Shown here piece by piece: positions 24,018 to 24,710 of a DNA stretch of 31,573 bases (the first letter of the stretch is position 1; each line of letters starts with the position of its first letter). The DNA lies in the IMG/VR virus record IMGVR_UViG_2551306526_000005; one strand, written 5' to 3'. The notes below the pieces were generated by a model, which was not told where the DNA came from, searched no databases, and saw only the letters and a program-made list of their open reading frames with translations. The stretch comes from a virus (taxonomy: Duplodnaviria > Heunggongvirae > Uroviricota > Caudoviricetes). The position numbers and the translations under genes were made by a program.

Positions 24018-24710
24018 ATGATCGAATTTATCGCAGAGCATATAAACACAGTAAGTACACTTATCTCCGCTTTGGCAGCATTGCTAACAGCAGTTGCTAC
24101 ATTTTTCTTGTGGAGAGTAACAAGGCTATTAGCAGACGAGACAAAAAGGATGGTTGACGCATCAGTTCAACCTCATGTCGTTGTGACTCTTGAACCAAAT
24201 TCTTGGGCTGCTTTTTATTTTGATATCAATATTGCTAATACCGGAAATGCCCCAGCCTATGATATTGAAGTCGGATTTAATCCCCCACTGGTTAATGCAG
24301 AACATAGAAAAAATAAAGGTATACCATTTAGCAAGGTTAGCGTATTGAAAAACGGCCATTCCCTCAACAGCAGTCTTTGTAAGTATGACCAGATTAAAGA
24401 TCAAGTTTATTCTGTTAGTATTAGCTGGTCTAAACAGCCGGGCTCAACTGAAAGAGAGCGGAATGAGTATTCTTATGATATGGCTTCTTTCGAGGGGGTT
24501 AGCTACTTAGGTGCAAGGAGTCCAATGACACAGATAGCTGAGCAGATGAAAAAGATTAGAGAAGACTGGAGGCCGATTTCCCAGGGAAGCAAAAAAATTA
24601 AAACAGACAACTATAATTCAAGTGACAGAGCCGAGGAACAACGAGCACGTGAAGAGTGGTATCAGACCACTGCAAAGAAATGGGATAAAGAAAAGCAAAA
24701 AGATAACTAA
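24018..24710 (+). CDS. Uncharacterised protein with N-terminal TM anchor and about 195-aa soluble domain (cargo)
   Basis: 230-aa ORF, AAGGA RBS; hydrophobic helix VSTLISALAALLTAVATFFLW; Lys/Glu-rich C-terminus; AT-rich. Confidence 0.6.
   Translation: MIEFIAEHINTVSTLISALAALLTAVATFFLWRVTRLLADETKRMVDASVQPHVVVTLEPNSWAAFYFDINIANTGNAPAYDIEVGFNPPLVNAEHRKNKGIPFSKVSVLKNGHSLNSSLCKYDQIKDQVYSVSISWSKQPGSTERERNEYSYDMASFEGVSYLGARSPMTQIAEQMKKIREDWRPISQGSKKIKTDNYNSSDRAEEQRAREEWYQTTAKKWDKEKQKDN

Follow-up and report, generated by a model that had tools for sequence, protein, structure and literature searches.

The subject of this report is ORF230, an open reading frame (ORF) coding for a 230-residue single-pass membrane protein in a 31,573-nucleotide stretch of viral DNA (IMG/VR record IMGVR_UViG_2551306526_000005). 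This stretch as a whole is referred to below as the window; it is an Escherichia coli prophage of the P2-like type (Peduovirus). ORF230 is a true gene, maintained by purifying selection, and it is an autonomous mobile module with its own upstream region and terminator, located in a cargo slot of the prophage. We consider it somewhat probable that this module is a stand-alone anti-phage gene, which would act through sensing and oligomerisation and whose outcome would be either abortive infection or a block of infection. Coordinates of the features are collected in Table 1.

Identity and conservation of ORF230

The reading frame begins with an ATG preceded, at a distance of 6 nt, by an AAGGA ribosome-binding site (RBS; 24007-24011). 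Comparison with seven orthologues, originating from E. coli islands, Kosakonia, Pantoea, Biostraticola, Pectobacterium and 'Ca. Pantoea varia', yielded ratios of non-synonymous to synonymous substitution rates (dN/dS) of 0.04 to 0.2 wherever dS was not saturated. It is because of these ratios and of the large homologue family that ORF230 can be considered as genuine. An earlier note on this DNA, made from the sequence alone, had already proposed a coding region of 230 residues and described it as AT-rich; both points held, the GC content being 0.40 as against 0.56 in the adjacent tail genes.

The exact protein is on record in 576 contigs. A word-indexed search retrieved 234 homologues, and an HMMER profile search over 1.84 billion representatives returned, at 50% identity, 1,657 clusters reaching E <= 1e-3, of which 151 also reached E <= 1e-30. 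The family members listed were about 180 to 250 residues long, and neither extra domains nor fusions were found among the 150 best matches listed in the profile search. When a profile of distant members was used in a second word-indexed search, only 9 further proteins were recovered, all of them unannotated.

Several database entries correspond to this gene. UniRef names the exact protein 'Lysogenic conversion protein from Bacteriophage P2-EC53', its RefSeq entry in avian pathogenic E. coli (APEC) O78 is WP_000569052.1, and PHROG 11802 matched it over the full length (E = 3.2e-147, residues 1-230 against profile positions 1-230 of 230). At the equivalent position of GenBank entry AJ512682 ('Bacteriophage P2-EC53 proviral Z-region, ORF1') a coding sequence (CDS) is annotated as 'putative lysogenic conversion protein', and the DNA of the island that holds ORF230 was 97.6% identical to this entry. 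Likewise, a 2.2-kb stretch around the gene was 98% identical to AJ512682 and to phage R18C, which carries ORF230 as well, and 100% identical to the chromosomes of E. coli O155 NWU strains and of APEC O78. A literature search found no mention of P2-EC53 or of the WP accessions in the main text of papers.

An autonomous and mobile module

The extent of the module was indicated by the loci in which least of the surrounding DNA was shared with the window. Kosakonia shares only positions 23880-24716, corresponding to ORF230 and the 138 bp upstream of it, and Biostraticola shares only the coding sequence. The GC content of the homologues was below that of their flanks in 39 of 41 loci, with a mean difference of 8.3 points. 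Copies were found beside integrases or serine resolvases, in an integrative and conjugative element (ICE) or at island edges, and most family members lay outside phages, including in an ICE and in chromosomal islets. In E. coli E2348/69, E. coli NCTC11023, Yokenella and Klebsiella (loci L064, L065, L067 and L068), a small serine recombinase (resolvase) gene was located within about 0.4 to 3 kb of the homologue. Such resolvase proximity at tRNA-associated and other island edges may be a hint at how the module moves.

No conserved companion was found around the homologues. Pfam and PADLOC scans, covering 42 of 44 loci from alpha-, beta- and gamma-proteobacteria, assigned no protein family to more than two of 150 neighbours. 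All-against-all clustering of the ORFs in the 44 loci, redone with a filter on GC content at third codon positions (GC3) because naive ORF calls were spurious in high-GC loci, revealed no recurrent partner either.

Strong PADLOC matches among the 150 neighbours comprised a type IIG restriction-modification enzyme, MzaA, NsnA, RmrT, PD-T4-2_A and AbiD. Additionally, independent copies of the ORF230 family adjoin PADLOC defence candidates, namely a DUF3800 gene (PDC-M04A) in NCTC11023 and an AbiJ_NTD4 gene (PDC-S32) in an island close to fec in E. coli. Variants of this island additionally contain a P4-like satellite in some strains or a prokaryotic Argonaute (pAgo, Piwi) gene in others.

Two local particularities were observed. 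The copy in the E. coli island next to fecCDE (loci L059-L062, gene 6001-6573) is a common allele, about 70% identical to ORF230, from which the membrane helix has been lost; it is convergent with the AbiJ_NTD4 / PDC-S32 gene, and in some copies an IS3-family transposase gene lies directly 5' of it. In Klebsiella islands (loci L010-L013, L068 and L069), a conserved 88-residue Cys-rich ORF (containing GRHKCCGCAYDQGYRAG) lies about 80-90 bp 5' of the homologue in the same orientation. Among the loci compared this ORF was confined to Klebsiella, and it is absent from the window.

The cargo slot and its borders

The gene on one side of ORF230 is the tail-fibre assembly gene G (22264-22791, Caudo_TAP), and that on the other side is the sheath gene FI (24971-26161). 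The same slot in P2 is occupied by fun(Z), which is non-essential, serves lysogenic conversion and, when cloned, blocks the growth of T5 (P2 fun(Z) annotation), and the Z/fun locus has been cited as an anti-phage defence site (PMC13586616). The G-FI cargo slot named in the earlier note is therefore the Z/fun locus of P2, a recognised site of anti-phage cargo. In the text consulted, the hotspot paper Rousset 2022 describes a single P2 hotspot, in which old and tin are located, and fun is not mentioned.

Similarity to P2 ends at 22876 and restarts at 24756, which defines the cargo island replacing fun(Z). The GC content of the island was 0.41, as against 0.56 in the tail genes. A degenerate inverted repeat coincides with the borders of the island, and its extended arms aligned with a score of 38, as compared with 18.6 +/- 3.5 for shuffles. 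Terminator-like hairpins flank ORF230 on both sides, and an Rfam search of the island revealed no RNA family. The hairpin at 22983-23017 is formed around a run of ten G (G10, 22990-22999). The APEC O78 match comprised 2,170 bases of a 2,171-base query, implying at least one indel somewhere, possibly in this run.

The resemblance between ORF230 and fun(Z) concerns their location: the slot, the degenerate inverted repeats and the P2-homologous flanks are the same, and both are non-essential AT-rich cargo, the anti-phage activity (against T5) being that of fun(Z). The P2 protein differs in its length (528 residues), in being encoded on the opposite strand and in lacking sequence similarity to ORF230. 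Homology between the two was rejected, the best BLASTP match having E = 1.8 and the P2 DNA similarity ending at the island borders.

Protein architecture and predicted topology

ORF230 displayed one hydrophobic segment (approximately residues 9-34), a soluble part of about 180-195 residues and a half-charged tail, with 8 Lys/Arg and 9 Asp/Glu in the last 34 residues. An AlphaFold2 model built from a 28-sequence alignment (mean predicted local distance difference test score 82.9) comprised one long helix (residues 2-49), a beta-sandwich (54-154) and two further helices (169-188 and 201-229). Hydrophobicity, model and composition bore out the N-terminal transmembrane (TM) anchor, the soluble domain of about 195 residues and the charged tail that the earlier note had described. 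Structure prediction and remote homology search, which it had suggested, reproduced this architecture and yielded neither a specific fold relative nor a characterised homologue.

The TM and juxtamembrane helix was the best-conserved region of the family. Residues T24, A25, A27, T28, L31, W32, R33, V34, T35, L38, A39, E41, T42, R44 and M45 were invariant in 28 diverse sequences, followed in conservation by P60-N61-x-W63, D69, N74-x-G76-N77-A78-x-A80 and F87-x-P89-P90-L91 in the sandwich and by G190 and D203-R204. T24, T28, T35 and T42 are spaced by 4 or 7 residues and therefore fall roughly on one helix face. The same overall plan was kept in more distant members. No conserved His, Cys or acidic cluster that would point to catalysis was present in the 28-sequence alignment.

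Over 90 members, the mean number of Lys/Arg residues was 0.28 in the N-terminal tail of about 9 residues, as against 3.7 in the 15 residues after the helix. Given this bias, the positive-inside rule predicts a cytoplasmic soluble domain: the short acidic N-terminus would be periplasmic, and the sandwich and the charged C-terminal helices would face the cytoplasm.

Structural comparisons were of limited specificity. The best Foldseek matches in the PDB (best E = 1.1e-3) were archaeal type IV pilin and TRAP subunits, and the best BFVD matches were uncharacterised phage transmembrane proteins; what these have in common with ORF230 is only the architecture of a membrane helix and an immunoglobulin-like (Ig-like) sandwich. 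A profile search of PDB sequences gave chance matches only (E >= 0.16). A membrane anchor joined to a soluble beta-rich domain is also the logic of membrane proteins of abortive-infection systems, such as the TM effectors of CBASS and Pycsar (for instance Cap15) and drt1b, the small TM partner in type 1 defence-associated reverse transcriptase (DRT) systems. ORF230 differs from these in that it has a single membrane helix instead of two and lacks a neighbouring cyclase or reverse transcriptase as well as a conserved partner.

Evidence for and against a role in phage defence

A defensive function has been predicted computationally for a cluster that is probably that of ORF230. In Table S5 of the DefensePredictor study, the ECOR copy WP_042002648.1 received a mean log-odds of 6.99 (range 3.5-8.6) and the label 'Predicted novel defense gene', and in Table S10 a RefSeq member received 8.24, the strict cutoff being a log-odds of 4 (PMC13092281). 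Compared by geometry and not by sequence, WP_042002648.1 probably corresponds to ORF230, being a gene of 693 bp and 230 residues, divergent from WP_001406733.1 at a distance of 491 bp. The only remote defence match reported for its cluster was drt1b, with an HHblits probability of 91 and a coverage of 16% (PMC13092281), which we read as the membrane helix. This cluster, with its identical gene geometry, and PHROG 11802, with its full-length match, are both labels for proteins to which no function has been assigned. The slot itself and the gene pair neighbouring ORF230 are anti-phage according to the literature.

In the mechanism that we propose, ORF230 would be a single-gene lysogenic-conversion module of the Z/fun slot, independent of the co-resident pair (DS-46, discussed below). 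The protein, expressed in the lysogen, would be anchored in the inner membrane by its one N-terminal helix, and the cytoplasmic Ig-like sandwich would serve as a non-enzymatic module binding a phage protein or an infection-induced change at the membrane. This recognition could bring about the association of the conserved Thr-lined TM and juxtamembrane helices, which in turn would provoke membrane failure, i.e. abortive infection, or block an early membrane-associated step of infection. Abortive infection is only one possible mode of action; in either case, ORF230 would most likely serve to protect its lysogen from other phages. The parts of this scheme that we infer are the topology, the binding of a trigger, oligomerisation and the outcome.

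Several points weigh against a defensive role. The component models of PADLOC-DB v2, which cover Abi families, the PD-T4, PD-T7 and PD-Lambda systems, DRT partners, CBASS and Pycsar effectors and PDC candidates, gave no family matching ORF230 at E <= 1, and Pfam-A and NCBIfam gave sub-threshold chance matches only (best E = 0.067 and 0.059, respectively). ORF230 is not among the 118 cloned units of Table S6, and only about 45% of the DefensePredictor predictions were validated (PMC13092281). The score is not independent of the hotspot argument either, because it makes use of genomic context. The enrichment of defence genes among the neighbours is modest, as judged by counts without statistics, and several homologues lie between housekeeping genes without any defence neighbour, for instance at ribBA/rodA in a sphingomonad and at queA-tgt in Pseudomonas. 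The positive-inside rule is the one support for the topology, and since the fold is generic, no specific mechanism is supported by it. Finally, a sigma-70 scan found no consensus promoter for ORF230, so that a promoter within 23880-24017 is only presumed.

An alternative to which we attach a low probability is non-abortive superinfection exclusion, in which ORF230 would block genome entry or an early membrane step without killing the cell. Inner-membrane proteins of this kind include T4 Imm, P22 SieA and SieB and HK97 gp15, several well-studied exclusion proteins acting on the periplasmic side. ORF230 shares with them a small size, a membrane location and a prophage-borne moron position, and it is a plausible blocker of an early step: it occupies the slot of a gene that blocks T5 growth when cloned, its conserved single TM helix could contact host inner-membrane proteins, and its best viral fold matches have the same 'helix + sandwich' build. 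Nor is there a partner antitoxin or any sign of a toxic activity that would need restraint. On the other hand, the soluble domain is predicted to be on the cytoplasmic side, no sequence or profile match to these proteins was found, and the family is common outside prophages. Pfam, NCBIfam and PADLOC scans revealed no homology to known Abi, superinfection-exclusion or holin families.

Improbable to a similar degree is a function unrelated to phage defence, ORF230 being then a lysogenic-conversion or accessory membrane protein that modifies host physiology (with regard to the envelope, to stress or to colonisation), or else a counter-defence factor, in a permissive slot. The original deposit goes no further than 'putative lysogenic conversion protein', Ig-like sandwiches have many roles, some homologues stand among housekeeping genes and about half of the predicted defence genes fail validation. 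Such a function accords poorly with a composition and contexts that are typical of mobile defence cargo, with a DefensePredictor score well above the cutoff and with the report that P2 and P4 elements carry no other kinds of accessory gene (PMC13586616).

Relation to the neighbouring pair and to the late operons

Two minus-strand genes, coding for a DUF3606 protein and a 92-residue protein, share the island with ORF230. Their accessions in the APEC O78 island are those of the unit 'RMRT' (WP_001406733.1 and WP_000002748.1), listed as defensive = TRUE and named DS-46 in Table S6 of the DefensePredictor paper (PMC13092281). DS-46, validated in E. coli MG1655, was the only protector among 24 low-scoring remote-homology controls, and its clone carried flanks of 200 bp on the upstream and 100 bp on the downstream side (PMC13092281). 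With flanks of this length, the clone did not include ORF230.

The arrangement of the pair differs in some respects from that given in the earlier note, which called ORF230 convergent with the pair in its title and divergent in its text. The strands, plus for ORF230 and minus for the pair, agree with the text. The likely start of the DUF3606 gene is 23526 and not 23565, as indicated by a GAGGAA RBS and by Pfam and PHROG matches in agreement with the RefSeq start. The non-coding spacer of 450 bp is accordingly correct with respect to the longest DUF3606 ORF (452 bp) and too short with respect to the RefSeq start (491 bp). It was treated as non-coding because the 65- and 142-residue ORFs in or overlapping it are not conserved. 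As for the proposed DUF3606 operon, the two minus-strand genes are indeed adjacent, but a terminator-like hairpin (23322-23341, minus strand) separates them and they do not clearly form one operon.

Of 5,426 complete E. coli genomes, 105 contained ORF230, 102 contained the pair and 99 contained the island as a whole; in E. coli, both modules mostly move as one composite cargo. Each was nevertheless found without the other. ORF230 occurred without the pair in E. coli E2348/69 (tRNA-Leu island), in E. coli NCTC11023 (tRNA-Gly island) and in about 40 other species, and the pair occurred without ORF230 in E. coli EEC_W5. Pantoea leporis was the only one of 44 GTDB species-representative loci to contain the pair. 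It possesses the whole two-module island (94% identity), with an insertion of about 313 bp in the divergent spacer (locus L016, 5458-5771) at approximately window position 23790. Because of this insertion, and since just the 138 bp before the ATG move with ORF230, most of the spacer can be regarded as unconstrained. About 40 more distant loci had no DUF3606 gene near the ORF230 homologue. In Pseudomonas machongensis (locus L044, 5688-5912) a weak relative of the 92-residue protein (29% identity, E = 1.8e-5) lies directly 5' of the homologue; this is the only hint of a linkage of the two modules outside Enterobacterales.

The earlier note had also suggested that ORF230 and the pair may act as a three-component defence system, an idea which we hold to be very improbable. 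It could draw on their near-constant association in complete E. coli genomes and on their common divergent intergenic region, but the pair protects by itself as DS-46, the two modules occur separately, the spacer is interrupted in Pantoea with only its last 138 bp following ORF230, and the more distant loci are devoid of a DUF3606 gene. ORF230 as a required or constant component of DS-46 was rejected on the content of the clone (two CDS and their flanks) and on this separate occurrence. Although DS-46 is the immediate neighbour of ORF230 and moves with it in 99 genomes, ORF230 is on the other strand and has its own upstream region and terminator. Since the co-occurrence data separate the modules, ORF230 is best regarded as stand-alone and the island as a stack of two independent units.

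An accessory lysis or late function for the P2-like phage itself (holin- or antiholin-like), compatible with a small single-pass membrane protein in the orientation of the flanking late operons, was rejected as very improbable, since terminators insulate ORF230 from both of these operons, P2 lacks it and has fun(Z) in its place, most family members are found outside phages and no holin family matched.

Table 1. Features of ORF230 and of the cargo island, with positions in the window
Feature	Positions	Strand	Basis or remarks
ORF230, 230-residue single-pass membrane protein	24018..24710	+	ATG start; PHROG 11802; dN/dS 0.04-0.2
Region coding for TM helix, about residues 12-32	24051..24113	+	Conservation, AlphaFold2 model, hydrophobicity
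Region coding for seven-strand Ig-like beta-sandwich, residues 54-154	24177..24479	+	Motifs PN-W, D69, N-T-G-N-A-x-A, F-x-P-P-L
Region coding for C-terminal helices, residues 169-188 and 201-229	24522..24704	+	Conserved G190, D203-R204; variable Lys/Glu/Arg-rich tail
Upstream 138 bp moving with ORF230; presumed promoter and 5' untranslated region including AAGGA	23880..24017	+	Shared in Kosakonia, Pantoea, E. coli E2348/69 and NCTC11023
Terminator-like hairpin and T-run, 3' of ORF230 and 5' of late FI operon	24842..24868	+	Hairpin scan
Whole cargo island replacing fun(Z)	22877..24755		Borders of P2 similarity; GC 0.41
Left arm of degenerate inverted repeat flanking the island	22764..22876 (core 22844-22876)		AJ512682 annotation and alignment
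Right arm of degenerate inverted repeat	24755..24845 (core 24755-24787)		AJ512682 annotation and alignment
DUF3606 protein, first gene of DS-46; neighbour outside the ORF230 unit	23347..23565	-	RefSeq start 23526, 59 residues, WP_001406733.1
92-residue protein, second gene of DS-46; neighbour outside the ORF230 unit	23016..23294	-	PHROG 1090, WP_000002748.1
Bidirectional hairpin terminator (G10 / C-rich) closing the G-ending tail operon and the minus-strand pair	22983..23017		Equivalent terminator in P2

Other AT-rich regions of the window

Two other regions of the window were AT-rich. The first (6974-8640, plus strand, GC 0.35-0.37) contains two ORFs of 257 and 260 residues, located 3' of a 775-residue ORF (3807-6134) and 5' of minus-strand ORFs of 344 and 600 residues (8989-11825). 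By the P2 map, we take this region to be the tin/old hotspot next to cos. Neither ORF had a Pfam or PADLOC match, and the region is another candidate defence cargo. The second (17228-18399, minus strand, GC about 0.37) contains two ORFs of 261 and 128 residues running against the surrounding transcription, with no significant Pfam or PADLOC match. Its position resembles what is presumably a third P2-like moron slot, the orf30 slot between S and V.

Significance of the ORF230 family

Part of the above was already known, the gene having been in GenBank for years (AJ512682) and having been flagged in the supplementary tables of DefensePredictor. The present analysis adds the delimitation of an autonomous module, the rejection of the three-component system through the link between the neighbouring pair and DS-46, the size and spread of the family, a predicted topology and fold, and the lack of a conserved partner. 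ORF230 is a well-delimited candidate and not a discovery, and a role in defence would not surprise specialists.

A broader and rather doubtful possibility, which we advance tentatively, is that ORF230 represents a large unrecognised one-gene immune family, in which a membrane-tethered cytoplasmic Ig-like domain would be the sensor and the Thr-lined helix the effector. If this were true, sensor and effector together would constitute a new minimal means by which the recognition of a phage at the inner membrane leads to abortive infection or to exclusion, in a family unrelated to known defence families and comprising more than 1,600 clusters (50% identity) among alpha-, beta- and gamma-proteobacteria and their phages.

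If ORF230 proves defensive in the more modest sense, it would constitute a new family within a known category, that of single-gene membrane-anchored prophage defence or exclusion. A widespread orphan family, for which Pfam, PADLOC and NCBIfam have no model, would thereby join the single-gene anti-phage proteins, and DS-46 and ORF230 would be two independent systems stacked in a single P2 cargo slot. With one membrane helix and an Ig-like domain, ORF230 would also offer a very small protein in which to examine the conversion of recognition at the membrane into protection.

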